A stretch of 61,505 bases of DNA from Candidatus Pacearchaeota archaeon (GCA_026395795.1 JAPLYB010000015.1:1-61505), one strand, 5' to 3'. Positions 641 to 54,359 are shown, counted from the stretch's first letter. The notes: generated by a model not told the origin, from the sequence alone. Numbers and translations: made by a program.

Positions 641-907
641 TTATTCAGATTCGTTTAAACCAAGACTCTTTCTCAATTTTTCTAATCTTTCTCTGTAAAT
701 CGAGACAGAATCATCATTTTCTATTCCCAAGATTTTAATCTTGATTTCTAATGCTTTTAATAAACTTTTATCAATCTCTTTAATATGATACCGCCCTAAA
801 TTGATATTGTCTTTCAGAATATCCTTCTCTATTTTCTTAAAATGTTCTTCTATTTCTTTTTTTAGACTTTCAGCTCCTCTTTCTATTCTTTTAGCTCTTT
901 TAACCAT
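641..907 (-). CDS. small charged helical protein, downstream partner of the AbrB-NTase gene
   Basis: 88-aa Lys/Glu-rich ORF overlapping the 3' end of 883..1632 by 25 nt. A counterpart with the same size and composition (3429..3659) follows the paralogous NTase. Confidence 0.5.
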   Translation of the reverse strand: MVKRAKRIERGAESLKKEIEEHFKKIEKDILKDNINLGRYHIKEIDKSLLKALEIKIKILGIENDDSVSIYRERLEKLRKSLGLNESE

Positions 908-1632
908 TTTTCAGATAATTCTAATATATCCATTAATTCGTCTGGAAGAAGATTATCCAACTCTTTTTCATCTCTTTTTATTCTTAAATAAGCTGAATAA
1001 GCTTTGTCTCCTGCCAGTTCTAAAAAATCTTTTTTATGGTAATTTTTGTTTGAAAGAAGGCATTTTATCAGGTATAATTCTCTCAGCCTTAAAACAATAG
1101 AATAAACAATGCCATCTGGAATATTCATGATCTTCTCTTTACACAGATCTACAGCATCTTTGTTTATCTTAAAAATCTTATTGATCTCCAACAGATTTTT
1201 TTTAAAATTAAATTTGTATCTCTTAAGCCTGTATTTTTCAATTAATTCTTTATTGAGAATGACTTTTGCCTCTTTTAGGATGCTCAAGTAATTCAGACTA
1301 TTTGGCAGGTTCTTTGAAAAAGAACTCTCTGAAACTAGGAGCATCTCGTAATTATTGTGATTGATGAGCCTATTTGTTTTTTCTGTTATGATTAGAACAT
1401 CTATATCACTGTTGAAATCAAAATCTGATCTTGAATAACTGCCAAATAAATAAATCCCTTTTATTTCCTCATTTAAATCCTTTTCAAACAGGCAGGTTAT
1501 TATGTCCTGGAGAATTTTCTCTTTTGAAGGATTAAAAAGAGTTACAACCACCTGTTTGTTTAGCCAGCTTCTAGGCAATAAAACTCCGGCAGATGTTCCA
1601 ACTTCTCTTGCTTGTTTTACTATTGTTTCCAT
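883..1632 (-). CDS. AbrB/SpoVT-like N-terminal domain fused to a minimal nucleotidyltransferase (MNT-like) domain
   Basis: The N-terminus VGTSAGVLLPRSWLNKQVVV is a swapped-hairpin AbrB/MazE-like motif. It is followed by the GS-x10-DxD NTase signature LFGSYSRSDFDFNSDIDVLIIT. Paralog of 2674..3468. Confidence 0.75.
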   Translation of the reverse strand: METIVKQAREVGTSAGVLLPRSWLNKQVVVTLFNPSKEKILQDIITCLFEKDLNEEIKGIYLFGSYSRSDFDFNSDIDVLIITEKTNRLINHNNYEMLLVSESSFSKNLPNSLNYLSILKEAKVILNKELIEKYRLKRYKFNFKKNLLEINKIFKINKDAVDLCKEKIMNIPDGIVYSIVLRLRELYLIKCLLSNKNYHKKDFLELAGDKAYSAYLRIKRDEKELDNLLPDELMDILELSEKWLKELKE

Positions 1633-3853: not shown

Positions 3854-4309
3854 ATGGAAACATTAATGCTAATAATAATACTTGTAATATTTCTTATAGC
3901 AATCATCATGGCTTATGTGATAGGAAGTGGGGCTGGATCGTATAAAAAACAAAAAGAGTGGGGAGAACAACTTCCTGATTTAAGGAAAGAGGCCATAATG
4001 AAGTCGAGGGCTGTTCTTGGAGGACAATTTTCAGAACAACTAGCACCTTTCCTGCCTGATTTCAAACATCTTCCAACAGAATGCAAGTTTTTAGGCAAGC
4101 CAATTGACTTTATTTGTTTTAAAGGGATGGATGAGAAAGAAATAAATGAGATTGTTTTTGTTGAAATCAAGAGTGGAAAAGCAACACTTAACTCTCAAGA
4201 AAAATCGCTTAAAAACACAATTGAAAAAAAGAAAGTAAGGTGGGAAGAGTATAGGATTCCTGAAGAGATAACTAAGAAAGCAGATGTGGAAGAAAAAGAG
4301 GAAAAATGA
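3854..4309 (+). CDS. membrane-anchored PD-(D/E)xK endonuclease distantly related to archaeal Holliday-junction resolvase (COG4741-like)
   Basis: N-terminal TM helix LMLIIILVIFLIAIIMAYVIG, then KPIDFICFKG....IVFVEIKSGKATLNSQEKSLKNTI (D...E-x-K nuclease core). Confidence 0.6.
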   Translation: METLMLIIILVIFLIAIIMAYVIGSGAGSYKKQKEWGEQLPDLRKEAIMKSRAVLGGQFSEQLAPFLPDFKHLPTECKFLGKPIDFICFKGMDEKEINEIVFVEIKSGKATLNSQEKSLKNTIEKKKVRWEEYRIPEEITKKADVEEKEEK

Positions 4310-4977
4310 TAAAAGCAATTCTTTTTGATCTGGACAACACACTCCTAGATTTCATGACTATGAAACATAAGTGCTGCGAAGCTGCTATTGAGGCAATGAT
4401 AGGAGCAGGACTTGATATGAAAAAAGACAGGGCATTGAAGATTCTGTTTGAATTGTATGATCAGTATGGAATAGAATATCAGAAGATTTTTGGGAAGTTC
4501 CTTATGAAAGTTGAAGGCAAAGTAGATTACAGGATAATGGTCCATGGCATTCTTGCTTATAGGAAAGTCAGGGATTCTTATCTTAGGCCTTATCCTAATG
4601 TGATGTCTACACTTCTTCAGTTAAGAAAAAGATACAAGCTTGCGATAATAAGCGATGCTCCAAGAATTGAGGCATGGCTCAGGCTTGTTACAATGAATAT
4701 GGAAGCTTTTTTTGATGTTGTCGTAACAGCAGGTGATGTCAGGAAACAAAAAACTTCTCTAACCCCTTTCAAGGCTGCATTAAAAGCATTAAAAATAAAG
4801 CCAGAAGAAGCTTTGATGGTTGGCGACAGGATCCCCAGAGACATAAACACAGCTAAAAAGCTCGGCATAAAAACGTGCTACGCAAGGTATGGTGATATGA
4901 AACCAGCGCCAAGGGGGAAAAGCGGAGCTGACTTTGAGATAGGGGATGTAAAGGAATTGATGGGGTTGGGAATTTAG
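4306..4977 (+). CDS. HAD-superfamily hydrolase (subfamily IA type)
   Basis: DxDxT motif ILFDLDNTLLDF, then IISDAP, then a C-terminal MVGDRIPRDINTAKKLG. A 4-nt ATGA overlap joins it to the upstream gene. Confidence 0.85.
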   Translation: MIKAILFDLDNTLLDFMTMKHKCCEAAIEAMIGAGLDMKKDRALKILFELYDQYGIEYQKIFGKFLMKVEGKVDYRIMVHGILAYRKVRDSYLRPYPNVMSTLLQLRKRYKLAIISDAPRIEAWLRLVTMNMEAFFDVVVTAGDVRKQKTSLTPFKAALKALKIKPEEALMVGDRIPRDINTAKKLGIKTCYARYGDMKPAPRGKSGADFEIGDVKELMGLGI

Positions 4978-5049
4978 TGGATAAGAAAGAAGAATAGAAT
5001 GATTTTCTTTGAACGAAAGAATTTTATAGACTTGTAACTAAAGAAGTTT

Positions 5050-5418
5050 ATGGCCAAAGACCACGAAACAAATGTTCATGAATTAAAAGAAAAAATCAAA
5101 ACTTTCTGTGAAGCAAGAGATTGGGATAAATTTCATAATGCAAAAGACCTTGCTATTGCTATCATTATAGAATCCGCAGAACTTCTTGAACCTTTCAGGT
5201 GGAAATCGGAACAAGAAGTAAAAGAATTATTTGAAAATCCACAAAAGAAGGAACATATAGAAGAAGAAATGGCAGACATTTTATACTTCTTATTAAGACT
5301 GGCTCAAAGATACAACATTGATTTATCAGAAGCTCTAGAAAAAAAGATTGAAAAGAATAATAAAAAATATCCTATTGAGAAAGCCAAGGGATCTAATAAA
5401 AAGTATAATGAGTTGTAA
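5050..5418 (+). CDS. MazG-type nucleoside-triphosphate pyrophosphohydrolase (DCTPP1/YpjD-like, all-alpha NTP-PPase)
   Basis: FCEARDWDKFHNAKDLAIAIIIESAELLEPFRW ... EEEMADILYFLLRLAQRYNIDL ... KIEKNNKKYP is the characteristic MazG-like core. Confidence 0.85.
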   Translation: MAKDHETNVHELKEKIKTFCEARDWDKFHNAKDLAIAIIIESAELLEPFRWKSEQEVKELFENPQKKEHIEEEMADILYFLLRLAQRYNIDLSEALEKKIEKNNKKYPIEKAKGSNKKYNEL

Positions 5419-5420
5419 AG

Positions 5421-7271
5421 ATGAGATTATATGAAGGAACAGTTCAAGAATTTAAAAAAGATATTGTAAATAATTCTATTGCTGAAAAAATAGCAGATAA
5501 ATTCAGAGAATATTACAAGAAATCAGCCAATGAATCTGAATTTAGATCGTGGGATAATTCTTTAAGAGTCTTAAAAGATGTTTTAGAGCAATCTAAATTA
5601 CTCAAAAATAAGATAGTTATTGAATATGAATTACCTTATTCTGCAAAAAGGATAGATGTCATTCTTTTTGGTGTTGATAAAGGGGGCTCGGATAACATAA
5701 TTGTTATAGAATTAAAGCAATGGTCGAATAATAATGTCAAGGATTCTGAAAATGAGGGTAATGTCTTGGTTAAGTTTGGTAGATTTAAGGAAACTCCCCA
5801 TCCTTCTCTTCAAGTAGAAGGCTATTACTATTATCTTAAAGATTTTATGAGTGTTTTTGAAGAAACTCCAAAAATATCTCTTAGCGCATGTGCATATTGT
5901 CATAATTATAAAAAAGGTGAAAAAGAAGTTCTTTATTCAACTAAATTTCATAAAGCCATTGAAAAGTATCCTTTATTTTCTCGAGAGGATATAAACGAAT
6001 TGGGAAAGTATTTTAAAGAAAAATTAGGTAAGGGGGATGGTTTAGAAGTTTTTGGCAGGTTTACACATAGTATACTGAGGCCTTCTAAAAGATTGTTAGA
6101 CCATACAAGGGATATGATTCAAAAACAACAAATTTTTAATTTAATTGATGAGCAGATAACACCATATAATACGATCATGCATAAAGCAAGAAAACTATCT
6201 AAACTGAGTGAAAAATCAATAATAATTGTTAAAGGTGGACCAGGAACCGGGAAATCGGTTATTGCACTAGAAGTTATGGGGGAATTGTTAAGAAAGGGTA
6301 AAAAGGTTTATCATGCAACAGGTTCTTCTGCATTTACAAACACCTTAAGAAAAATATTGGGCATAAGATCTTCTAGTTTATTTAAATTTTTTAATAGTTT
6401 TACAAACCACCAAGAGAATGAAATAGAAGTTTTAATCTGTGATGAAGCACATAGGATAAGAAAAACTAGCGAAAGCAGATATACCCCAAAAATTCAAAGA
6501 ACAGAAACTCCACAAATTGAGGAATTAATTAAAGCCGCACAACTTTTAATTTTCTTTATTGATGAACATCAGATTGTGAGACCAAAAGAAATAGGGAATA
6601 TAAAATTAATAAGAGAAACTGCTGAAAGATTAGGAGTTAAAGAAAACAATATCTTTGAATATGAGTTAAAAACGCAATTCAGATGCGGTGGTTCTGATTC
6701 TTATCTTCAATGGCTGGAAGATGTTTTGGAAATAAATGAAAGCAAGAATATTCTTCTTCAAAAAGAAGAAAAAATGAAATTTAACATTCTTTCTGATCCA
6801 AATGAATTAAGGAAAATTATAGATGAAAAGAATAAGCAAAAGAAGAATTGTGCTAGAATTGTTACGGGTTTTTGCTGGCCTTGGAGTGCTCCGAGAATGG
6901 ATGGAACTTTAGTAAATGATGTTAAAATAGGAAATTTTGAAATGCCTTGGGAAAAGAAAGACGAATTTTGGAAATGGGCAACAGACGATTCTGGAATGCA
7001 ACAAGTTGGAACAGTTTATACTGTCCAAGGATTCGAATTTGATTATATCGGAGTAATTTTTGGAAAAGATTTGGTTTATAACAAAGAAAAAGAAAGCTGG
7101 GAAGCTAAACCAGAAAATTCTTATGATGGTGAAGTAAAAAGGAATAATCCAGAATTACTAAAACACTTAAAAAATGTATACCGGGTTTTATTGTCTCGAG
7201 CACACAAAGGAGTTTATGTTTATTTTATGGATAAAGATACTGAAAATTATTTTAGAAATAAAAATTGTTGA
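5421..7271 (+). CDS. DUF2075-type (Schlafen group-3-like) nuclease/SF1 ATPase protein
   Basis: N-terminal PD-(D/E)xK-like KRIDVILFG..NIIVIELKQW; Walker A VKGGPGTGKSV; Walker B VLICDEAHR; C-terminal VYTVQGFEFDYIGVIFG and YRVLLSRAHKGVYVY. Confidence 0.85.
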   Translation: MRLYEGTVQEFKKDIVNNSIAEKIADKFREYYKKSANESEFRSWDNSLRVLKDVLEQSKLLKNKIVIEYELPYSAKRIDVILFGVDKGGSDNIIVIELKQWSNNNVKDSENEGNVLVKFGRFKETPHPSLQVEGYYYYLKDFMSVFEETPKISLSACAYCHNYKKGEKEVLYSTKFHKAIEKYPLFSREDINELGKYFKEKLGKGDGLEVFGRFTHSILRPSKRLLDHTRDMIQKQQIFNLIDEQITPYNTIMHKARKLSKLSEKSIIIVKGGPGTGKSVIALEVMGELLRKGKKVYHATGSSAFTNTLRKILGIRSSSLFKFFNSFTNHQENEIEVLICDEAHRIRKTSESRYTPKIQRTETPQIEELIKAAQLLIFFIDEHQIVRPKEIGNIKLIRETAERLGVKENNIFEYELKTQFRCGGSDSYLQWLEDVLEINESKNILLQKEEKMKFNILSDPNELRKIIDEKNKQKKNCARIVTGFCWPWSAPRMDGTLVNDVKIGNFEMPWEKKDEFWKWATDDSGMQQVGTVYTVQGFEFDYIGVIFGKDLVYNKEKESWEAKPENSYDGEVKRNNPELLKHLKNVYRVLLSRAHKGVYVYFMDKDTENYFRNKNC

Positions 7272-7308
7272 GGAAAGTAAGAAAAGTATTTAATGAAGGA
7301 TTAATAAG

Positions 7309-8007
7309 ATGAAACTCATAAAAACAATAAACTATAAATTAACAGAAGAAACACTCGAGAAAGATATTGATAAATTTATTGAATTAGCAAAAAAAGGGCA
7401 TTATCATATGGATAAAATGTATCAAAATGAGGGATTAAAAATAATAAAACAATACTTCAAGATATTAAATGAAAAATTTAAAAATAATGAATTAGAAGAA
7501 TGCAAAAGATGCTACCATAAATTAATCCTTTTTTTACTAATAGCGTCTAGTGGAGAAGATGATTTATTTGATTACAACGACCTTTTAGCAAAAATTAGCA
7601 ATGACTTTGATCATCATATCCAAAATTATTTTATTTGTCTTGTAAAAACCTGCGATATCGATGAGCTGACAGATAAAATCTCTGAATATGCCGCCTCACT
7701 AGATATTTACGGATTTGATTCTGATAAAGAAATTTTGTTAGAAAGTTTAAGTAAGGAGCAGTTAGATAAACTTGAGGAGAAAATGCTTGCAAAAACTCTG
7801 GGCATGACTAAAAAAGATGAAGATAAACAGGGGGTTGTTTATTTTTTAATGAATATAGCAGAAGTACGAGAAGATAAAGAAAAATATCTTAAGCTATGTG
7901 AGAGATTTAAGGGAGTTTTGACTGATAAAGAACTTGAATATTTGAGAGGAGAATATGAAGAAAACAAGATAATAGCTGAAAGATTAAAAATGTTGGGGAA
8001 AGTGTAA
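7309..8007 (+). CDS. hypothetical all-alpha protein, member of the 5050-10266 operon
   Basis: 232-aa ORF, 37 nt after the DUF2075 gene and ending 1 nt before the next start. No recognisable motif. Confidence 0.6.
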   Translation: MKLIKTINYKLTEETLEKDIDKFIELAKKGHYHMDKMYQNEGLKIIKQYFKILNEKFKNNELEECKRCYHKLILFLLIASSGEDDLFDYNDLLAKISNDFDHHIQNYFICLVKTCDIDELTDKISEYAASLDIYGFDSDKEILLESLSKEQLDKLEEKMLAKTLGMTKKDEDKQGVVYFLMNIAEVREDKEKYLKLCERFKGVLTDKELEYLRGEYEENKIIAERLKMLGKV

Positions 8008-8008
8008 A

Positions 8009-8512
8009 ATGAAATCAATTAAATTTACAGATTCTGAATTGAAATTCATTTATCAACTGATAAAATCTTTTGAAGAAGAGATGGTTCAAAATCCCTCGGA
8101 ATCTTGGGAAATGGACTATTACGATGAACCTCTTATTGATAGAAAACCATTAAAAAGCATATTGAAAAAGGTGGAAAAGTCCTTGCCTAAAAACAAAAAG
8201 GAAGAGATCTTAAAATCTTTTTTAAGAAGAAAGTATAGCACATTCAATAATGAAATTGATGAAAAGGTTTATTCTATTTTAGAAAAAGCATTCATGCAAT
8301 TAAAAACAGTTGAAATAAAGTATTTTAATACTGAAAGTGCTGAGTTTAGCAAGAGAAAAATTGACATTTATTATAAATCAAGGAAACATATCATCGCTTA
8401 TTGCCATTTAAGAAAAAGTATAAGAAAATTTAGAACAAGTAGAATAGCATACGCTAAATTAACAGATGAAAAGTATAAAATACCAGACGATTTTGATAAA
8501 AATAAATATTGA
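8009..8512 (+). CDS. WYL-domain protein
   Basis: The C-terminal half TVEIKYFNTESAEFSKRKIDIYYKSRKHIIAYCHLRKSIRKFRTSRIAYAKL fits the WYL pattern (..Y....R.i.P......yl.ayC...r..R.Fr..RI). Confidence 0.7.
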   Translation: MKSIKFTDSELKFIYQLIKSFEEEMVQNPSESWEMDYYDEPLIDRKPLKSILKKVEKSLPKNKKEEILKSFLRRKYSTFNNEIDEKVYSILEKAFMQLKTVEIKYFNTESAEFSKRKIDIYYKSRKHIIAYCHLRKSIRKFRTSRIAYAKLTDEKYKIPDDFDKNKY

Positions 8513-8531
8513 TAAGATAAAGAATTAAAAA

Positions 8532-9107
8532 ATGAAAATGGATAAAGAAGCAATGAAAAAAGAAGGGACAAGGGGCATGAAAGAATTTGATTTGGCTTGG
8601 AAAGAATTTTTTAAAAACAAGCTCCATCCGAAAAATGACGAGGAAGAAAAGAAAGAATTAGAAGAATTTGGTCATTGGTATAATTATGTTAGAAAACAAA
8701 GTGATACTGGAAAAACCCCTGCTGAAATGTATAAAGAAATTTATGGAAAAGAGCCCTCACAAAACCTGCCCATAAATTCTCAAGAACCAGGCAGAATGAT
8801 TAATTTTGAATGGGATGGTGACTACAATGAAAGTGATCTCAAGGGTGAGGATGAATTAGATGAATCTCAAGAAGGGGCTGTTGTTGTTGCTACTGAAATA
8901 TTTGAGGACAGTTGGAAACGAATAAAACAAGAAATAGATGGGGTTGACAAGAAAGAAGCATGTAAGTATTCGTTTATACTGGGATTTTTAGACTACCTAA
9001 AAATGATGGACAAGAAAGCAGAACTGATGGAGAAAAAAATGAAAAAGATGTCTAAAGAAGAGATTGAAAAATTTATTGATAATTTTAAAGAATATAAAAA
9101 GAATTAA
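8532..9107 (+). CDS. hypothetical acidic protein, member of the 5050-10266 operon
   Basis: 191-aa ORF in the tight same-strand array. No family assignable. Confidence 0.55.
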   Translation: MKMDKEAMKKEGTRGMKEFDLAWKEFFKNKLHPKNDEEEKKELEEFGHWYNYVRKQSDTGKTPAEMYKEIYGKEPSQNLPINSQEPGRMINFEWDGDYNESDLKGEDELDESQEGAVVVATEIFEDSWKRIKQEIDGVDKKEACKYSFILGFLDYLKMMDKKAELMEKKMKKMSKEEIEKFIDNFKEYKKN

Positions 9108-9118
9108 GGGGAGAACGA

Positions 9119-10000
9119 ATGCCAACATTAATTGATCAAGAAGCAGAATTATTTTATAAAATTATGAATCAGTTAATCTATTTCGCTAATTCAAGATTTA
9201 ATTTAGTTAATAATTTTCCAAAACCAGAAGAAGGAACTTGGGAAGAAGAAGATATTCAAAAAATAACAGAAAAGATTTTTTCAAAGCCCGAGATAATTCT
9301 CTCTTTTTGCAGTGAAAATCCGGCTATGCTAAATAAAGATGAAATTGAAATTGCAAAAACTTGGAAAACTTTTGTAAAAGATAAGTTTATGGTATTTACT
9401 AATAAGGATAAAACTATATTTTTTAGTTCTGAAAAAAACCCTAAAGCTTATGAAGTTTGGGGGATACGTAATACTTTTTTTGATTTATTGCCTTTTGAGC
9501 CAATAATGCTTGAAGCGATATTAGTTCCATTTAGAGAAAAGATAGTTTACAGTAGCTCATTAAGACTCTTTCCAATTTCATTCGGAGGAGGGTATAAACG
9601 AAGTTTAGAAAGAGATTTTCAGATATCAAAAAATAAATTTGGCATAATCTCCTCATTAATACAACCAATAGAAGAAAAAAAACAATCTGATGAAGATTTG
9701 CTGAGATTTTATTTAAAAAATAAACAAAATCGAGAAGAATTTTGGGAAGAGATTAATGAAATTTTAAAGAAAGATGGTTCTCTTAAAAATGTTTATCATA
9801 ATGAGATAGGAAAATCTTATGTGAAAGAGGTAAAAAAAATATTTTCAGATATCGGCATAAAAGAAGGATATTTTGCGATTGTAAATTCACAAGTTATAAC
9901 TTCTGGGAAATCTGAAAATGAAGTTAAAGAAAGATTAAAAGAAATCTTGCCTGAAGATAAGATAATCTCTGCACATATTTTTAGATATCAGAAAAAATAA
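9119..10000 (+). CDS. hypothetical protein, member of the 5050-10266 operon
   Basis: 293-aa ORF starting 11 nt after the previous stop. No recognisable motif. Confidence 0.6.
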   Translation: MPTLIDQEAELFYKIMNQLIYFANSRFNLVNNFPKPEEGTWEEEDIQKITEKIFSKPEIILSFCSENPAMLNKDEIEIAKTWKTFVKDKFMVFTNKDKTIFFSSEKNPKAYEVWGIRNTFFDLLPFEPIMLEAILVPFREKIVYSSSLRLFPISFGGGYKRSLERDFQISKNKFGIISSLIQPIEEKKQSDEDLLRFYLKNKQNREEFWEEINEILKKDGSLKNVYHNEIGKSYVKEVKKIFSDIGIKEGYFAIVNSQVITSGKSENEVKERLKEILPEDKIISAHIFRYQKK

Positions 10001-10026
10001 GATAAGCAAAGAAGGGGGAGGGAAAA

Positions 10027-10266
10027 ATGACTGAAACTTGCAAAACTTGCCGTGAACAATTTGATTCTGGAGTTTGGTTAGTCCCACAATTCAATGATGA
10101 AAAAGATCTATTATTTTGTTCAAAAAAAAAATGCAAAAAAGGTTATATAAAAATGAAGCTTGAAAGAATCAAATGGAACTATCCAGATTATTATCAAAAG
10201 ATAATAAAACATAAAAAAGAGAAAGGAGTTATCAGCTTTAGTTTAGGCAGGATAGAAAAGAGATAA
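10027..10266 (+). CDS. small Cys-rich (possible zinc-ribbon) protein, last gene of the operon
   Basis: 79 aa with CKTC...x24...CSKKKC. Confidence 0.45.
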   Translation: MTETCKTCREQFDSGVWLVPQFNDEKDLLFCSKKKCKKGYIKMKLERIKWNYPDYYQKIIKHKKEKGVISFSLGRIEKR

Positions 10267-10520
10267 TAATCTAAAAAAGATGGCAGAAAAACAAGAAGAA
10301 GAATTGAGCGAAGAGTATGTATCCACAATACCTAATGAGCCAATCAGTATTAAAGAAGATGAAATAAGCACGAAGATAGGAGAATTGACGCAGGAATGGA
10401 TAGAGAGTGAAACTTGGAGATAATGAAGATAGAGATAAAGAACGACTGTGGAAGCTAAAAGTTTATCACTAATCATTAAAATTATTTTTGGTTCTACAAT
10501 GCGTTGCGGCCTTCGTTCTC

Positions 10521-10545
10521 GCTTCGCCCTGCTGGGCTCGCTCTT
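10521..10545. repeat. left copy of a 25-bp perfect direct repeat flanking the Fic gene
   Basis: gcttcgccctgctgggctcgctctt occurs here and again at 11682..11706. The similarity extends imperfectly upstream (cggcct...). Confidence 0.9.
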
Positions 10546-10553
10546 CAAAAATC

Positions 10554-10653
10554 TTCCTGCCCAAATGGTGCAGTTTTTATCAGATTTTCCTGCCCAAAAC
10601 GTACATTAAAAGGATGTTATCGAGGATAAAGCTTAAAATAATTCCTGCCCAAA
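10554..10653 (+). promoter_or_regulatory. three TTCCTGCCCAAA boxes upstream of the Fic gene (candidate operator or iteron set)
   Basis: ttcctgcccaaa is at 10554-10565, 10587-10598 and 10642-10653. The first and third copies extend to ttcctgcccaaatggt. The last copy ends 37 nt before the Fic start. Confidence 0.6.
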
Positions 10654-10690
10654 TGGTAACATTTTTAAACTCCAAGTTATAATCTATTCT

Positions 10691-11647
10691 ATGAGCTACT
10701 TAGAACAGAAGGAAGTTAAGACAAAAACTTATGTGTCTTTTGTAAAAAAAATCACTTTTATGAAGCATCAGCTAGTCATCAAAAAATACATCGGCCCAGC
10801 AGACAGCAAGATAAACAAAGAAAAATATCTTTTGGATAACCTCCAAGAGATTTCACATAAAGAATTCCAATTTAGACTGAAGTATCTGGAACCAATAAAA
10901 AACCGGCTGTCTTATAACGCTTCTCTTCCAGAAGAGGTTGAGAAAAGAACAATAGAGATAAACAACTTGATTGAAGGAAAACAGTGCACTAATCTAGTTG
11001 ACAGTGAATTCGCAATGGAGTTCACATTCAATTCCAATAACATAGAAGGCTCAAAAATTCCTCCAGACGTGGTTAGGCAGATAGTAGAAACCGGGAGCAC
11101 TAAATATAAGAACAAGAACGAGATCAGGGAAGTCAAGAACTCGATTACAGCCTTAAATTATCTAAAAGGATCCTTTAGATTCAATATTCAATCAATAAAG
11201 AAGCTGTATCATCTATTGACTCATGAACTTTATATGGAGAACAAAATCCCTTATCCCCGAGGATTCAAAAAAGTAAAAAATATTATTGGCAACTCAACAA
11301 CGACCCCCCCCGAAGAGGTGGCAAAAGAGCTGGATAAACTGCTTTCTTGGTATAAGGACAATAAAGACAAAATCCATCCACTAATCCTTGCTTTTGAGTT
11401 TCATAGAAGGTATGAATCCATCCATCCTTTTTTAGATTGCAATGGCAGAACAGGAAGGTTGATTATGAATAAAATTCTTATTAACGCAGGGTATTTTCCG
11501 ATAGTGATCTATAAAGAGAATAAAACTGCTTATTTCAATTACTTAGAGAAATCAAAAGAAGGAAAAACAAAAGTTTGTTACCAGTTTATGCTAGAACAAG
11601 CCAGAAAAACATATGATTATATCCTGCATATATTAGATAAATACTGA
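10691..11647 (+). CDS. Fic/DOC family protein (AMPylase-type fold)
   Basis: Fic motif variant HPFLDCNGRTGRL, against the canonical HxFx(D/E)GNGRxxR. Typical length of 318 aa. Confidence 0.85.
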   Translation: MSYLEQKEVKTKTYVSFVKKITFMKHQLVIKKYIGPADSKINKEKYLLDNLQEISHKEFQFRLKYLEPIKNRLSYNASLPEEVEKRTIEINNLIEGKQCTNLVDSEFAMEFTFNSNNIEGSKIPPDVVRQIVETGSTKYKNKNEIREVKNSITALNYLKGSFRFNIQSIKKLYHLLTHELYMENKIPYPRGFKKVKNIIGNSTTTPPEEVAKELDKLLSWYKDNKDKIHPLILAFEFHRRYESIHPFLDCNGRTGRLIMNKILINAGYFPIVIYKENKTAYFNYLEKSKEGKTKVCYQFMLEQARKTYDYILHILDKY

Positions 11648-11681
11648 TCTTAAAATTATTCTTTCGGCCTCACTCCGCTCG

Positions 11682-11706
11682 GCTTCGCCCTGCTGGGCTC
11701 GCTCTT
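11682..11706. repeat. right copy of the 25-bp direct repeat flanking the Fic gene
   Basis: Identical 25-mer to 10521..10545, beginning 34 nt after the Fic stop. Confidence 0.9.
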
Positions 11707-11734
11707 TCCTTGCGGACGCCAAAAGATTTATAAG

Positions 11735-11758
11735 CTATAGCCACTATAGTTGCTATAG
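11735..11758 (+). promoter_or_regulatory. three CTATAG palindromes at 9-bp spacing (candidate antitoxin operator)
   Basis: ctatag is at 11735, 11744 and 11753, ending 9 nt before the start of the RHH-like gene. Confidence 0.5.
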
Positions 11759-11767
11759 GTCAAGAAC

Positions 11768-11974
11768 ATGGATACCACAACAATTCAATTAAGCAAGGAA
11801 ACAAAAGATAAATTATCTTCATTTGGAGTGAAAGGCGAAAGCTATGATATTATTCTCAAAAGAATTTATTCTCTAGCAGTAAAAGAACAGCTTAGAAGCT
11901 TTTTGATGTCATCAGAAGGATTCATGCCAATCGAAGATGCCATAAAAGAGGCAGATAAAAAATGGCCAAAGTAA
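11768..11974 (+). CDS. ribbon-helix-helix/CopG-like antitoxin candidate
   Basis: 68 aa with TTIQLSKETKDKLSSFGVKGESYDIILKRIYSLA. It overlaps the downstream toxin-like gene by 13 nt. Confidence 0.55.
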   Translation: MDTTTIQLSKETKDKLSSFGVKGESYDIILKRIYSLAVKEQLRSFLMSSEGFMPIEDAIKEADKKWPK

Positions 11975-12303
11975 GCATCTCCGAAACTTTAAAAGATGAA
12001 ATTCTGAAAAAATTCAAAGAAGAATCCAAGATAATATTCAGACAAATGTATTCTTTGGCAGAAAATCCGCATAAAGGCAAGATTCTTGGTCAAATTGGTG
12101 GAATTGTAATCAAAGAAATAAGATATAAAACTTTCAGATTTTATTTTATCACAGATGGTTATAAATTGAAGATAATGAATGAATCAAGCTTAACAGATTT
12201 ATTAATAAGATTTGTGAGGATGTCTGATAAAAAAGATCAACAAGAGACTATTGAAGGGATTAGAAAGATACTCCTTAAGTTTGGACCAGAAGGGCTTGAT
12301 TGA
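11962..12303 (+). CDS. RelE/ParE-superfamily toxin-like protein with a C-terminal extension
   Basis: 113 aa with ..LAENPHKGKILG...EIRYKTFRFYFITDG.. Paralogous to 29950..30273, including the shared SDKKxQQETIxxI tail. Confidence 0.5.
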   Translation: MAKVSISETLKDEILKKFKEESKIIFRQMYSLAENPHKGKILGQIGGIVIKEIRYKTFRFYFITDGYKLKIMNESSLTDLLIRFVRMSDKKDQQETIEGIRKILLKFGPEGLD

Positions 12304-12321
12304 AATATTAAACAAAAATTT

Positions 12322-13032
12322 TCAATCAGTCCATTCTTCCACGCTCTTTGCCTTCAAATCTTTAGAAGAATATAATCTTTCGACTTCCTGGCTGATGGTA
12401 GAGACTGCAGATTTATCTTCAACTTTTATTGCTGTTTCGTAATGGGTTTTGAATCCACTGTAAGTTAAATTAACTGAGCCGAGAAACGCTATTTCTTCAT
12501 CTATTATGAAAATTTTTGAGTGAATAAGCTCTGTGCTTCCTGGATTTTTTCCAGAATGGGAATCAAATACTTTTATCCTGAAGATTGGCTCAGATTTATG
12601 CGAGTAAGGGCTGATTAAAAAATAAGACAAAAGAGTCAACACGCTGATTGATAATAACAAAGTTGATATGAATCCTGGTATGAGATTTGTAAAAGAGAAT
12701 ATCAAAGATATTAGAGAAACGCCAAATAAGAAGATAGATATTTTAGATATGTTCTTTTTTAGTTTTTCTTTTTTCTCATCATAAACCTTTTCTGTTTTTA
12801 TTAAATCTGAAACAGAAAAATCAGAATAAGAATTACTTTCTATTTTATCACAGGTAATTAGAGTTACTTTCACGCCTTTTTTATGCAAAGTAATAAGATC
12901 TTTTATATAATTTGCAGAAAGGTAAGGGGAAACAATTTTTACAGATTTTTTAGCGTTTTTTATGGTCTCGTGAATCTCTTTTCCAGCTTGTCTTCCAATA
13001 TAAATCTGGTCTTTATTGCTGTTAGTTATCAT
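12322..13032 (-). CDS. single-HKD phospholipase D/Nuc-family protein with an internal two-helix membrane insertion
   Basis: HKD motif LIHSKIFIIDEEIAFLGSVNLTYSG. The hydrophobic stretch ISIFLFGVSLISLIFSFTNLIPGFISTLLLSISVLTLLSYFLI lies between the N-terminal half and the HKD half. Confidence 0.75.
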   Translation of the reverse strand: MITNSNKDQIYIGRQAGKEIHETIKNAKKSVKIVSPYLSANYIKDLITLHKKGVKVTLITCDKIESNSYSDFSVSDLIKTEKVYDEKKEKLKKNISKISIFLFGVSLISLIFSFTNLIPGFISTLLLSISVLTLLSYFLISPYSHKSEPIFRIKVFDSHSGKNPGSTELIHSKIFIIDEEIAFLGSVNLTYSGFKTHYETAIKVEDKSAVSTISQEVERLYSSKDLKAKSVEEWTD

Positions 13033-13036
13033 TCTT

Positions 13037-13396
13037 TTATTTCCCTAACTTTTCCCCCACCTTCTTAAATAACTCTGAATGTTCTTTTCTCACTTTTTCT
13101 ACTGTTTTTATAAAAGTAGTCATGGTACCATCACATTCTTCTTTCATATATCCTTCAAAATCTTCTTTTTTGTCGGGAGCAAAATGATGACAATCAGAAC
13201 ATAAGGTGATGAGGTTATCTAATTCGTCTTTTCCACCATAACATGATGGAACAAGGCGGTGCGCTTCTAGAATCTTAGATGTTTTATCCCGAACTTTACA
13301 TTTCTGACATGTAAAATCATCTCTTTCAAATGTTTTTTTCTTCAGTGTTTGATTCCTTTCTTTCATTCTAACTCCCCTCCTTTCTCGTTCTCCCAA
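13037..13396 (-). CDS. HNH endonuclease
   Basis: CQKC...[28 protein letters not shown]. Its start overlaps the recombinase 3' end by 34 nt. Confidence 0.8.
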
Positions 13397-15366
13397 ATGT
13401 CTTCTATATCTTCTTTTTCTATTGCTTCCTCGGGATGTTCTTCTAATTTTTCCATTATTTCTTCTTGCTTAACCTCCTTTTCTTGTTTTATTTCATTTTT
13501 CATCAATGCATCGATTGGACTTGGAACCTTTTTGATTTGTTCTGATGAGATATGGGTGTAAATCGCCGTCGTGTCTAGATTAGAATGGCCTAACATTATT
13601 TGGATCATCCTGATATCTATGCCGTCTTCTAAAAGATGTGTAGCGAAGCTATTGCCAGTAATAAATATTTTTTCATTAGATTTTGCAATCCATGTTTGAT
13701 TTTTGGTTGAAGGACACCAAACTAATCCCTTAAAGTGTTCTTTTTTTATATCTCCTCTGTCAAAGTAAATATCACATTCGGATTTCTCTGTGATATATGT
13801 TCTATAATATACTTTATCTTTGTCTAGGCAATATCCATGTAAATTGTTTTTCTTAAATCCAATCAATGTTCTTTTTCCGAGAAGACAGCAAAGGGCTCTA
13901 AAAAAGTCTATCTTCTTCTTATCTTGCAAGGTCAATTCATTACAAGTATAACCATCCTTTCTAGATGTGCCGTCCCCCATCATTATACACTTAAATAATT
14001 CTTCTAGCTCTTCTTTTTTTAAGGAAAGTAATTTATACTTTGGGGTTTTATCTATATTAATCCATTCAAATATCCAATTATGATTCTTCCCTTTGACCTT
14101 GCCCCTATTCCCCCCATTTATTAATCTAAAGCATATAAAATCCCCCCTCTCTTTTTCCGTAAATGGGATTTTTCCACTGATTAACAAATTTCTTATGTAA
14201 TCACATTTTTTTGTATTTGCCTTACAACTCTGAACTATAACAATTTCTATGTGATTTTTCCTGTTCGAAATATTTCCATCTGTTAAAATCCAGCCAATAA
14301 TCCCTGCTTTTTCTTTGGTAATTGACTTTGGGCCGTCATAAAAAGAAGAAAGTTTGTGCTTGATTAACCTTATCCCTCTAATTTTTAAAAGCTGATTAAA
14401 ATTTATAAGTTCCCAGTTTTTCCAATCAGTAAAAACCCTATAATTTTTCTGTCTTTCATAACCTATCTTTAAAACTCCTTTGTGTTCTGCAGTGCATAAA
14501 TAATCAAGGCAGTAGTTTTTAATCCTAAGAAGATTATCTTCTATATTATACTGAAAAATGTCTAGAATAGGATTGGTTTCAATTTTATCCTTTTTAAGAT
14601 TATAAGTAAATACTAAATCTCCTTTCTTAATTTTATCATGTTTTTTCCAGCCATCAACGGTCAAAATTTCTGTATCATCTGTTACGCAATGCCTCAAAGT
14701 ATGCGGATGAACCTTTTTCTGGATTCCTGTTTTAGCTAGGGCATTGCCCATTATCTTTTCTATATTTCTTGTGGAAAGCCGACCTTTTGGACCTGAAAAT
14801 AGGAATTCTTGTGAACTGTTCTTCTGAAGTTCTGCTTGTTCTTTAATTTCCTGGAGTAAGAGGTCAGGAATATTGAACACACGATCTTTTTTGCCTTTTG
14901 CTTTTCTAGCATAACCTATTTTTTCATCAAAATGAAGATCTTGAACTTTCAAGTTAGTTAATTCTGAAACTCTAAAACCACAAGCATAGATCAATGAGAG
15001 CATTAATTTGCTTTTTTTGCTAGTAATGGCATTTAGAAGTGTTTTAACTTCTTCTTTTGTTAAGACAGTTGGAATTTTTGTTTCTTTTTTAGGTCTTTTA
15101 ATACCTTGCGTGATGTCTTTTTTAAGAATATTTAAAAAACCATACTTTATTGCGGCTAAAAACAAGATAGCTGAACTTGATGATCTTTCACCAAGCTTCT
15201 CAGCCATAAATAACTTTAGATCATCTTGATTAATCTGTTCTGGCTCTTTTTTAACAAATTCAATGAGCTCTGAGTTTGCTTTGGTGTAGTTCCTTATTGT
15301 ATACTCTGAGTTCTTTGATATTTTGAGCTCTACTTCTAACTTTTTGAGGAATTCGGATTGATTCAT
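13363..15366 (-). CDS. XerA/XerC-type tyrosine recombinase interrupted by an intein
   Basis: SAM-like N-domain ([17 protein letters not shown]), catalytic Arg box [14 protein letters not shown], then HPHTLRH. A 346-aa insert follows, after which the sequence resumes [33 protein letters not shown] (catalytic Tyr). Confidence 0.9.
13651..14688 (-). mobile_element. intein (residues C227-N572 of the recombinase) with a LAGLIDADG homing-endonuclease domain
   Basis: Block A is [14 protein letters not shown], block B is TAEH, the LAGLIDADG motifs are [14 protein letters not shown] and [13 protein letters not shown], block F is [15 protein letters not shown], and block G is IFITGN followed by +1 Ser. 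The Cys codon is confirmed at 14686-14688. Confidence 0.85.
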
Positions 15367-30273: not shown

Positions 30274-30338
30274 ATTTCTTTGTTGTTTTTAATCTTTTCT
30301 TAGAATTTTCTGTCTCTTAAGGTTCAAAGAAGGGGTTA

Positions 30339-30433
30339 CGCCCAGACCAGGAATCGAACCTGGAGATCCTTGCGGAAACGAGTTATCTTGTTTTGAATTC
30401 GAGACTCGCGCCTTACCGTTGGGCCATCTGGGC
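30339..30433 (-). tRNA. tRNA-Ser (anticodon CGA) with a 13-nt intron (30385..30397) at the canonical 37/38 position
   Basis: The reverse complement folds as acceptor GCCCAGA/TCTGGGC, anticodon stem CGAGT/ACTCG, loop CT-CGA-A[ttcaaaacaagat]A, a long variable arm TTTCCGCAAGGATCT, T-arm CCAGG-TTCGATT-CCTGG, and discriminator G. Confidence 0.85.
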
Positions 30434-30503
30434 ATAATTATTAAGACAGAGCAAATTTAAAAGTCTTTACACACGCGCCTGCGGGCGCGCGTGGCGCATA
30501 GGC

Positions 30504-53301: not shown

Positions 53302-53519
53302 TTTAAATTATTTAACCAATATATTTTAACTCTTTTTCTATGTCTTCTTCTTTCGGAGATTCTAATCCAAGCTCTTTATTCATTTCAGCTTCAATGTTCT
53401 CGACTTCTCTTTTCTTTATTTTCTTTACCATACTTTTTATAATTTTTACTCATATAAAAAGCTTTGTACAAACATTTTTATTTGAGAACATATTAAAAAA
53501 TTGTGAAAAGGAGAAAGAC

Positions 53520-54359
53520 ATGAAGACAAATAATAAGTCTAAAAAGGTTCTGTTTGTATTGCTTGCTCTTTTTCTCTCTGCTATAATTTTTGCGTTTTTC
53601 AAATTAGACCCTCTCGAATTAACTGGAAAAAGCATTTCTGTCGGAGAGATGGAAACAGTTACAAAAGTAATTGATGGAGACACGGTTATAATCTCTGGGG
53701 GAGACAGCGTCCGTCTACTGGGGATAGATGCTGACGAACGAGGTTATCCTTGTTATAATGCGGCTAAAGAACGAGTTGAGGAACTTCTCTTAGGAAAAGA
53801 AGTTTATCTTGAGAAAGGCAAAGAAGATCTAGATATTTATGGGAGAGAATTAAGATACATTCTTTTTAATGGAGAAAATATCAATCTGAAACTTATCCAA
53901 GAGGGTTTTGTTATTGCACGTATAGAAGAAGAGGATAGATATAAGCAAGAATTTGTGGATGCTGAAAATTATGCAAGAGAGAACAATCTCGGATGTAAAT
54001 GGAGCGGGGATTGGTTGCCTGGAAGTAATATTCAAACAAATGTTTCTTGGAACAAGCTGTCTGGAAATGCTATTCTTGCATGTGCTGCTAAGGGTTTTAT
54101 TGACAAAACTATGATTGTTGAAGGAAAAGTCATCGACATATACCAAAGTTCAAGTAATACGGTATTTATCAACTTTGAAAAACCATACCCTAATTCTTGT
54201 TTTACAGCAGTGATATTTAAATCAGATTTAGGAAAGTTTGACAGTTTAGATATCTATAAAAATAAAGTTGTTCGAGTTAAGGGAAAAATCAAAGAGTATG
54301 AAGGCAAGCCAGAAATGATCCTTGAAAATGAAGATATGATTGAAGTAGGACAGAATTAA
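53520..54359 (+). CDS. membrane-anchored or secreted staphylococcal-nuclease-like thermonuclease with a C-terminal OB-like domain
   Basis: The ATG at 53520 is preceded by aaggagaaaga. A TM/signal segment VLFVLLALFLSAIIFAF is followed by VIDGDTVII..SVRLLGIDADE...RELRYILFNGENINLKLIQEGF. Confidence 0.8.
   Translation: MKTNNKSKKVLFVLLALFLSAIIFAFFKLDPLELTGKSISVGEMETVTKVIDGDTVIISGGDSVRLLGIDADERGYPCYNAAKERVEELLLGKEVYLEKGKEDLDIYGRELRYILFNGENINLKLIQEGFVIARIEEEDRYKQEFVDAENYARENNLGCKWSGDWLPGSNIQTNVSWNKLSGNAILACAAKGFIDKTMIVEGKVIDIYQSSSNTVFINFEKPYPNSCFTAVIFKSDLGKFDSLDIYKNKVVRVKGKIKEYEGKPEMILENEDMIEVGQN

Follow-up and report, generated by a model that had tools for sequence, protein, structure and literature searches.

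A MazG-like pyrophosphatase and a DUF2075 nuclease-helicase form a conserved gene pair, very probably independent of the five DPANN genes packed behind it in a Pacearchaeota genome

Do seven genes packed closely on one strand of an archaeal genome make up a single system? The question is raised by a 5.2-kb block in a contig of a Candidatus Pacearchaeota archaeon (GCA_026395795.1, JAPLYB010000015.1:1-61505), the whole 61,505-nucleotide stretch of which we call the window. An ORF scan places seven plus-strand open reading frames (ORFs) in the block, with gaps of 2, 37, 1, 19, 11 and 26 nt, in exact agreement with a preliminary description made from the sequence alone; we number them g1 to g7 from 5' to 3' (Table 1). 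That description had proposed a multi-component immunity module in which nucleotide-pool manipulation and a nuclease-ATPase effector are sensed or regulated through a WYL protein. We consider it highly probable that the block instead consists of two independent units that lie side by side where this Pacearchaeota-like (DPANN) genome is variable and rich in defence genes: Unit A (g1-g2, 5050-7271), a MazG-like pyrophosphohydrolase with a nuclease-helicase, and Unit B (g3-g7), an assemblage of DPANN island genes. Apparently new here are a Nhi-like protein with a MazG partner and a set of uncharacterised DPANN island genes.

Profile searches upheld the family assignments that the preliminary description had read from motifs, namely a MazG-type g1, a g2 combining a PD-(D/E)xK-like domain with a DUF2075-type ATPase, and a WYL domain in g4. 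The g1 protein matches the MazG-like Pfam family PF12643 (E = 3.8e-19; 69.2 bits against a cut-off of 27), its nearest solved relatives in a PDB search are dCTP pyrophosphatase 1/RS21-C6 proteins (DCTPP1; E = 9e-21), and its metal-binding motif, E41-x2-E44 ... E73-x2-D76, is kept in at least 90% of 53 aligned homologues. Residues 265-604 of g2 match PF09848 (DUF2075/SLFN-g3_helicase) at E = 9.3e-87, and D79, E97-x-K99, the Walker A motif GGPGTGKS at 272-279 and CDEAHR at 340-345 are invariant in 22 homologues. A PD-(D/E)xK nuclease domain is predicted for g2 at the level of motifs: residues 54-143 give a weak NERD-type nuclease match (E = 6.5e-4, below the Pfam cut-off), and a single-sequence search of g2 against PDB sequences returned no match. 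The WYL domain of g4 is found by PF13280 over residues 87-150 (E = 1.4e-8; 35 bits against a cut-off of 21.8) and by the PADLOC model of CRISPR-associated WYL proteins (E = 9.7e-17), which aligns only from profile position 88, to protein residue 37. For g3, g5, g6 and g7, likewise as described before, no family rose above threshold in Pfam, NCBIfam, PHROG or PADLOC. Homologue searches found conserved relatives of these four elsewhere too; since each of the seven has such homologues, all are real genes rather than chance ORFs. The minus-strand ORFs within the block are all of 50-63 aa and nested inside plus-strand genes.

The partnership of g1 with g2 recurs widely. An alignment-driven scan with one genome per species gave 80 loci of g2 homologues, 79 of which could be evaluated for MazG. 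In 43 of the 79, the gene directly preceding the g2 homologue, in the same orientation, is a g1 homologue, and in 11 more such a homologue is found no farther than 3 kb away. When all ORFs up to 5 kb from the g2 homologues were clustered without supervision, MazG emerged as the sole recurrent neighbour of the family: it was present in 53 loci, in 48 of them upstream and in the same orientation, with a median gap of 3 nt. No third conserved partner was found, either by this clustering or when the 70 ORFs flanking the pair most closely were scanned against Pfam. These ORFs are heterogeneous: HNH_2 in 5, RadC in 4, PDDEXK_1 in 4, helix-turn-helix (HTH) domains in 3, a second DUF2075 in 2 and singletons for the rest. 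We considered the HAD hydrolase gene of the window as a member of Unit A and rejected it; it is colinear in L172, the locus of the closest g2 relative, yet no third family occurs in more than 6 of the 80 loci. The strong conservation of the pair supports a functional link between the MazG-type enzyme and the nuclease-ATPase, and we conclude that the two genes of Unit A form a cassette complete in itself and mobile by horizontal transfer.

Over 7600 proteins belong to the g2 family at E < 1e-10; the 120 best matches, from archaea and bacteria, are 61-76% identical to g2. Its loci include, on the archaeal side, Woesearchaeota, Micrarchaeota, Methanosarcinales, Thermoplasmata and Thaumarchaeota, and on the bacterial side Acidobacteriota, Pseudomonadota, Bacillota, Bacteroidota, Actinomycetota and Chloroflexota; further loci come from Omnitrophota, Elusimicrobia, Planctomycetota and candidate phyla radiation (CPR) lineages. 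Cultured carriers of the pair are Parageobacillus caldoxylosilyticus, Paraburkholderia spp. and Pararobbsia alpina. Relatives of g2 were found on 111 plasmid records, and two more distant plasmid homologues (<40% identity) have no MazG annotated nearby. The Microcystis phage Mwe-JY31 (PP438423.1; L174 3657-5863) carries a MazG-like and DUF2075 pair, both annotated as hypothetical; its MazG-like protein of 109 aa is 49% identical to g1 and is encoded directly upstream of the g2 homologue. We also observed DUF2075 variants of about 800 aa with a LexA-like Peptidase_S24 domain (P0198, P0222, P0252, P0265). The one inspected (803 aa, L175 4651-7412) has a MazG-like gene immediately upstream and MNT-HepT, SoFic-like and nucleotidyltransferase (NTase) genes around it, and the fusion hints at damage- or RecA-linked control of the DUF2075 protein.

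Unit B does not travel with this pair. Homologues of g3-g7 at E ≤ 1e-3 occur in 0 of the 80 g2 loci, and, reciprocally, MazG and DUF2075 occur in 0 of the 78 loci that a metagenome scan returned for g7 and in none of the g3 and g6 loci examined. The closest relatives place the break precisely. In L172 (g2 76% identical) the local order of the window, NTase, HAD, MazG, DUF2075, is kept, and window positions 4303-7254 are colinear with L172 6910-9837 at 73.7% DNA identity; beyond the 3' end of g2 the colinearity is lost and the L172 genes are unrelated. In L173, a 7-kb contig with the closest g6 relative (85% identity), g6 is flanked by g5-like and g7-like genes, followed by an SNase gene, and MazG and DUF2075 are absent. 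The g3-g7 segment also differs in composition, with a GC content of 28.4% against 33.1% for the whole stretch, the second lowest of 293 equal-sized windows. Because the five downstream genes are syntenic with MazG-DUF2075 in no other examined genome, the reading of the block as a seven-gene system fails, and a single seven-gene operon is largely refuted by this absence of synteny. Of the multi-component module first proposed, the link between MazG and the nuclease-ATPase (adjacent in 43 of 79 loci) is supported; the membership of g3-g7 is not, nor is the suggested sensing or regulation through WYL, and g4 is linked to MazG-DUF2075 in no other genome examined.

What, then, are the five genes of Unit B? 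All are restricted, in homologue searches, to Pacearchaeota/Woesearchaeota-type archaea. For g3, 168 homologues were found at E ≤ 1e-3; the 120 matches listed are 56-82% identical, and those among them with a named source all come from metagenome-assembled genomes (MAGs) of Pacearchaeota, Woesearchaeota or Nanoarchaeota. Its AlphaFold model (mean predicted confidence, pLDDT, 83.9) has helices throughout, and Foldseek returned generic helical-repeat (TPR/ARM-like) matches only, the best at E = 0.06. Elsewhere the next gene after g3 is usually a g7 homologue; four g3 contexts have a g7-like gene after g3 and variable small genes before it, with MazG and DUF2075 absent. In other DPANN contigs, g4 homologues (53-61% identity) have g7 homologues or HNH genes as neighbours. 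Several defence systems are under the control of WYL proteins, and g4 shares its WYL domain with regulators of the CRISPR-associated and BrxR/CapW types; unlike them, it is a protein of only 167 aa in which no winged HTH domain was detected, and no HTH family appears among its Pfam, NCBIfam and PADLOC matches. The g5 protein had no PDB sequence match by profile search. Its C-domain (residues 106-188) exists also as a stand-alone protein of 94 aa. Its N-domain behaves as a mobile module, fused elsewhere to helical-repeat proteins of about 600 aa that end in a SEC-C zinc motif and also to an unrelated 344-aa protein (Table 1).

The g6 family is small, with 26 homologues at E ≤ 1e-3, the few source-named ones from Pacearchaeota or Woesearchaeota. 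Helical domains surround a beta-barrel in its AlphaFold model (pLDDT 87.6), which ends in a small alpha/beta C-terminus. Foldseek gave nothing at E ≤ 0.001 for g6 against PDB or the viral library BFVD (best PDB match E = 0.02), so that the structural comparison which the preliminary description had suggested for the unrecognised proteins yielded no significant match for either the 232-aa g3 or the 293-aa g6. Weak, repeated oligonucleotide-binding (OB) fold matches, to RPA14/32, RecO and ExoVII in PDB and to LEF-3 and single-stranded DNA-binding (SSB) proteins in BFVD, and a weak local DUF5678-like match of the C-terminus in the viral library are leads only; a PADLOC match to Cas2 is marginal (E = 0.0086). 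The gene occurs inside a type I restriction-modification (R-M) operon in L001-L003, in an array of g5-like, 71-aa, g6 and g7-like genes in L004 and L005, and alone after a TPR protein in L006 and L007. We observed that, in type I R-M operons of DPANN contigs (L001-L003, L097, L105, L111, L124, L130), as many as about 15 additional genes of the same direction are interspersed among hsdR, hsdS and hsdM: small unknown families, the g5 C-domain, g6, g7, UvrD, YgjP-like, SWIM, KilA-N, ORF6N, DUF3800, Bro-N and NYN.

The gene that connects these arrangements is the smallest. Six aligned g7 sequences share an invariant C5-x2-C8 ... F30-C31-S32-x3-C36 pattern. Matches to Pfam and NCBIfam all lie below the cut-offs, and a g7 profile searched against PDB found archaeal ribosomal protein L24e (E = 3e-4) and a 'TRASH domain-containing protein' (E = 0.046). 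We read g7 from these similarities as a putative TRASH/eL24-like zinc ribbon, distinct from the ribosomal protein itself, that probably binds nucleic acid. The family is rare, with only 28 representative clusters among 1.84 billion proteins. Immediately upstream of g7, the commonest gene in the 78 loci is an ORF of the g5 family (25 loci), often reduced to the C-domain; others are HEPN (7 loci, in the order NTase-HEPN-g7), g3 (4), g6 (2) and Fic (2), and g4 adjoins g7 in several more. Among the 32 g7 loci of at least 8 kb, 13 contain type I R-M genes, and 26 contain at least one of Hsd, HEPN, NTase, Fic, AlbA_2/HATPase_c_4, AAA_14-DUF4143 and DUF3800. Tentatively, g7 could be a small nucleic-acid-binding partner or regulator shared by diverse island cassettes. 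Elsewhere, Unit B genes are met in shuffled sets (g5 before g7, a g5-g6-g7 triplet, g3 before g7, g4 beside g7), of which only the pair of g5 C-domain and g7 and the g5-g6-g7 triplet (L004/L005, L173) recur as sub-arrangements. Two further observations concern these loci. A second g7-like copy, split by an insert of about 70 nt that falls between residues 27 and 21 of the alignment, lies at L008 10570-10855 and, identically, at L146 8902-9187, and may be a pseudogene or carry a small insertion. The window ORF at 53340-54359 is 51% identical to the SNase-domain protein of L173 (L173 1850-2722) and lies 43 kb from the triplet here.

Unit B is, on this evidence, a local assemblage of five DPANN-restricted accessory genes that recombine freely among islands around a core of g5 (C-domain) followed by g7, with the WYL protein g4 as one more shuffled component rather than a sensor for Unit A. 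Accessory genes embedded in type I R-M loci are familiar, PrrC in the EcoprrI locus being an example, and homologues of g5, g6 and g7 likewise lie between hsdR, hsdS and hsdM in DPANN contigs; PrrC and RloC, however, have no sequence or domain similarity to Unit B, and the window itself has no type I R-M genes by similarity to DPANN Hsd genes. Alternatively, a mobile element or virus specific to DPANN archaea might have inserted behind g2, with g3-g7 as its cargo or its remnant; these genes would then serve the element, in replication, regulation or anti-defence, rather than the host. The low GC content, the synteny break exactly after g2, the weak OB-fold/SSB-like matches of g6, and the shuffled, multi-copy occurrence of these genes in islands with KilA-N, Bro-N, ORF6N, primase and integrase genes all fit an element. 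We nevertheless think it unlikely: 2.9 million IMG/VR viral contigs contain no relatives of g3 or g6, the g3-g7 block is neither bordered by repeats nor next to a recombinase (the closest integrase is 3 kb off, on the other strand and beyond the Fic, PLD and HNH genes), and many copies sit inside type I R-M operons rather than in recognisable elements.

The remaining question is what Unit A does, and here comparison with known proteins is informative. Enzymes of the DCTPP1 type are house-cleaning enzymes, and DCTPP1/RS21-C6 and the MazG-type enzymes of phages and bacteria share PF12643 and the ExxE...ExxD metal site with g1. Those enzymes are stand-alone house-cleaning or (p)ppGpp-related proteins, whereas g1 is the operon partner of a nuclease-helicase; no fixed operon partnership of this kind was found in the literature searched. 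For g2, PADLOC gives matches to PDC-S41 (E = 4.3e-26) and the lactococcal AbiO (E = 1.8e-15), single-gene candidate or abortive-infection proteins of the DUF2075 type, but these cover only part of the protein (best stretches 413-608 and 240-474, respectively); no PADLOC family named Nhi is among the g2 matches at E ≤ 1, and no model matches its MazG partner g1. With nothing in PADLOC for g3, g5 or g7 either, no named multi-gene defence system in PADLOC-DB v2.0.0 corresponds to the block gene for gene and only single genes or domains match, which agrees with the earlier statement that its composition was not recognised as any named system.

The closest functional parallel is Nhi of Staphylococcus epidermidis (SERP2475), a single-protein anti-phage system with nuclease and helicase activities that is proposed to degrade phage replication intermediates (bioRxiv 10.1101/776245). 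A second protein of the same architecture, 'Nhi-like', is experimentally anti-phage and, according to Millman et al. (2022), shares no sequence identity with Nhi (bioRxiv 10.1101/2022.05.11.491447). Like g2, both join an N-terminal PD-(D/E)xK domain to a superfamily 1 (SF1)-type helicase core overlapping DUF2075/PF09848, and they occur in the same kind of island context; we liken g2 to Nhi by architecture and motifs. PF09848 has also been counted as an abortive-infection (Abi) family in a survey of Escherichia coli defence islands (PMC10121019). The difference lies in the partner: Nhi and Nhi-like are single proteins, whereas genomic evidence couples the g2 family to a MazG-like pyrophosphatase in 54 of 79 loci, and no MazG or pyrophosphatase partner is mentioned for either (bioRxiv 10.1101/776245; bioRxiv 10.1101/2022.05.11.491447). 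Literature searches joining DUF2075, Nhi or Schlafen with MazG found nothing relevant, and the pairing is apparently undescribed.

From architecture, relatives and context, we judge a role of Unit A in defence against viruses or plasmids to be, on balance, the likelier one. In such a role the DUF2075 protein would unwind and cleave foreign DNA or replication intermediates at the expense of ATP, as proposed for Nhi. The pyrophosphatase would either eliminate or draw down dCTP-type or modified dNTPs on which the invader depends, or modulate the nuclease-helicase. A function in DNA repair or nucleotide sanitising is a competing reading for these two genes: non-canonical dNTPs would be cleared by the pyrophosphatase, and the substrates of the nuclease-helicase would be replication intermediates that are damaged or stalled. 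The house-cleaning role of DCTPP1-type enzymes and the kinship of g1 with solved DCTPP1 structures speak for it, as do the fusion of some DUF2075 homologues to LexA-like Peptidase_S24, the housekeeping genes among the neighbours of the pair and the high sequence conservation of the family (38-76% across domains). In eukaryotes, moreover, Schlafen proteins with DUF2075 act in the replication-stress response (PMC6765204). Yet the patchy bacterial and archaeal distribution is what horizontal transfer predicts, the family is found on plasmids and in a phage record, it recurs beside toxin-antitoxin, Fic, HNH, RadC and R-M genes, and Nhi and Nhi-like, of the same architecture, have been shown to be anti-phage, so that we consider a repair or nucleotide-sanitising module in place of an immune system rather improbable.

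Several points weigh against the defence cassette and the two-unit view, and we set them out together. The defensive role of Unit A is argued from architecture, relatives and context, and the parts assigned to the pyrophosphatase and to g7 are ones that we infer. With no detectable MazG neighbour in 25 of the 79 g2 loci, the partner is not obligatory, and some genes flanking the pair are housekeeping enzymes. PADLOC-DB v2.0.0 dates from 2023, and the pair may carry a name in newer catalogues. The structure searches with g3 and g6 brought no significant match. Lastly, the tight spacing and the Shine-Dalgarno-like sites (AAGGA before g3, GGGGGAGGG before g7) are compatible with co-transcription of all seven genes, which the spacing makes plausible, and because they allow it, some local functional coupling of the seven is conceivable. 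A TTTTATAG box lies about 25 nt upstream of g1, and a promoter and terminator scan found nothing above shuffles, with bacterial-type models that are not applicable to archaea. That all seven genes nonetheless form one lineage-specific defence operon, with MazG and the nuclease-ATPase as effectors, the WYL protein as sensor or regulator and g3, g5, g6 and g7 as accessories, is very improbable: the shared strand, the gaps of 1-37 nt, the Shine-Dalgarno-like sequences before internal genes with no obvious internal promoter or terminator in the bacterial-type scan, the PADLOC WYL match of g4 together with the general role of WYL proteins in regulating defence systems, and the island-like setting favour it, but the combination occurs in 0 of 80 g2 loci, 0 of 78 g7 loci and neither L172 nor L173, g3-g7 recur in other orders and partnerships, and g4 is without a recognisable DNA-binding domain.

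Taking both halves of the two-unit reading to their fullest extent, MazG and PD-(D/E)xK-DUF2075 would constitute an unnamed two-component antiviral system, spread horizontally through both prokaryotic domains and phages, and g3-g7 would separately be mix-and-match DPANN cassettes with a TRASH zinc-ribbon protein as their hub, a new class of accessory immunity embedded in R-M loci. We put this conjunction forward as a possibility only, to be held tentatively.

The surroundings agree with the defence, toxin-antitoxin and mobilome island seen in the preliminary description: two NTase genes lie upstream, as do genes for a Holliday-resolvase-like nuclease and a HAD hydrolase, and Fic, PLD, HNH and a 667-aa tyrosine integrase are encoded downstream. 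Named relatives of several window genes are Candidatus Pacearchaeota, Woesearchaeota and Nanoarchaeota MAGs. The 425-nt gap separating g7 from the Fic gene contains three exact direct copies of TTCCTGCCCAAA (10554-10653, 33 and 55 nt apart), for which chance predicts only 0.4 matches at ≤1 mismatch; a fourth copy with one mismatch, at 1728-1739 on the minus strand, adjoins an NTase gene (Table 1). These repeats could be an operator, an iteron or a recombination site. Just upstream of them, at 10495-10545, lies a GC-rich stretch, gcgttgcggccttcgttctcgcttcgccctgctgggctcgctcttc, unusual in a sequence of 33% GC, and directly 3' of g7 an acidic 47-aa ORF (10281-10424), below the length limit of the ORF list. 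Rfam gave nothing in the 10495-10545 or 10281-10424 region and no credible structured-RNA match in 4500-12500. The integrase (13363-15366, minus strand) is unusually long, with two separate Phage_integrase matches, which could reflect an insertion such as an intein, a duplication or a fusion. Farther along, ARAGORN called a 97-nt tRNA at 30338-30434 on the minus strand, of undetermined identity and with a four-base anticodon (aatt), which may be an intron-containing archaeal tRNA.

Table 1. Positions of the seven genes, of neighbouring genes in the window and of g5 N-domain fusions in other loci.
Feature	Position	Strand	Remarks
g1, MazG-like all-alpha NTP pyrophosphohydrolase, DCTPP1/RS21-C6 type	5050..5418	+	122 aa, Unit A
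g2, Nhi-like nuclease-helicase: predicted PD-(D/E)xK N-domain with DUF2075/Schlafen-group-3 SF1-type ATPase	5421..7271	+	616 aa, Unit A
g3, all-alpha helical-repeat (TPR/ARM-like) protein of a DPANN-restricted family	7309..8007	+	232 aa, Unit B
g4, small WYL-domain protein without recognisable HTH	8009..8512	+	167 aa, Unit B
g5, two-domain protein: N-domain with motif WYNYVRKQSDTGKTPAEMY, helical C-domain	8532..9107	+	191 aa, Unit B
g6, central beta-barrel (possible OB fold) with DUF5678-like C-terminus	9119..10000	+	293 aa, Unit B
g7, putative TRASH/eL24-like four-cysteine zinc-ribbon protein	10027..10266	+	79 aa, Unit B
NTase gene	883-1632		
HAD hydrolase	4306-4977		upstream of g1
Fic gene	10691-11647		family recurs in g7 loci of other DPANN contigs
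g5 N-domain fusions in other loci	L011 6125-7657; L123 5285-7075; L159 4524-6311; L119 258-1292		

Nuclease-helicases of the Nhi/Schlafen type restrict viruses in hosts ranging from bacteria to humans. Should the MazG-DUF2075 pair prove to be a defence system, these nuclease-helicases would gain a nucleotide pyrophosphatase as a partner, and nucleotide-pool control would be joined to DNA degradation in one compact cassette. The idea can be tested directly, since cultured bacteria carry the pair. The locus also holds a caution, in that tight same-strand packing in small, gene-dense genomes is no evidence for a single system. The DPANN gene network around g7, for its part, gives a rare point of access to immunity and to the architecture of islands in uncultured, host-dependent archaea.

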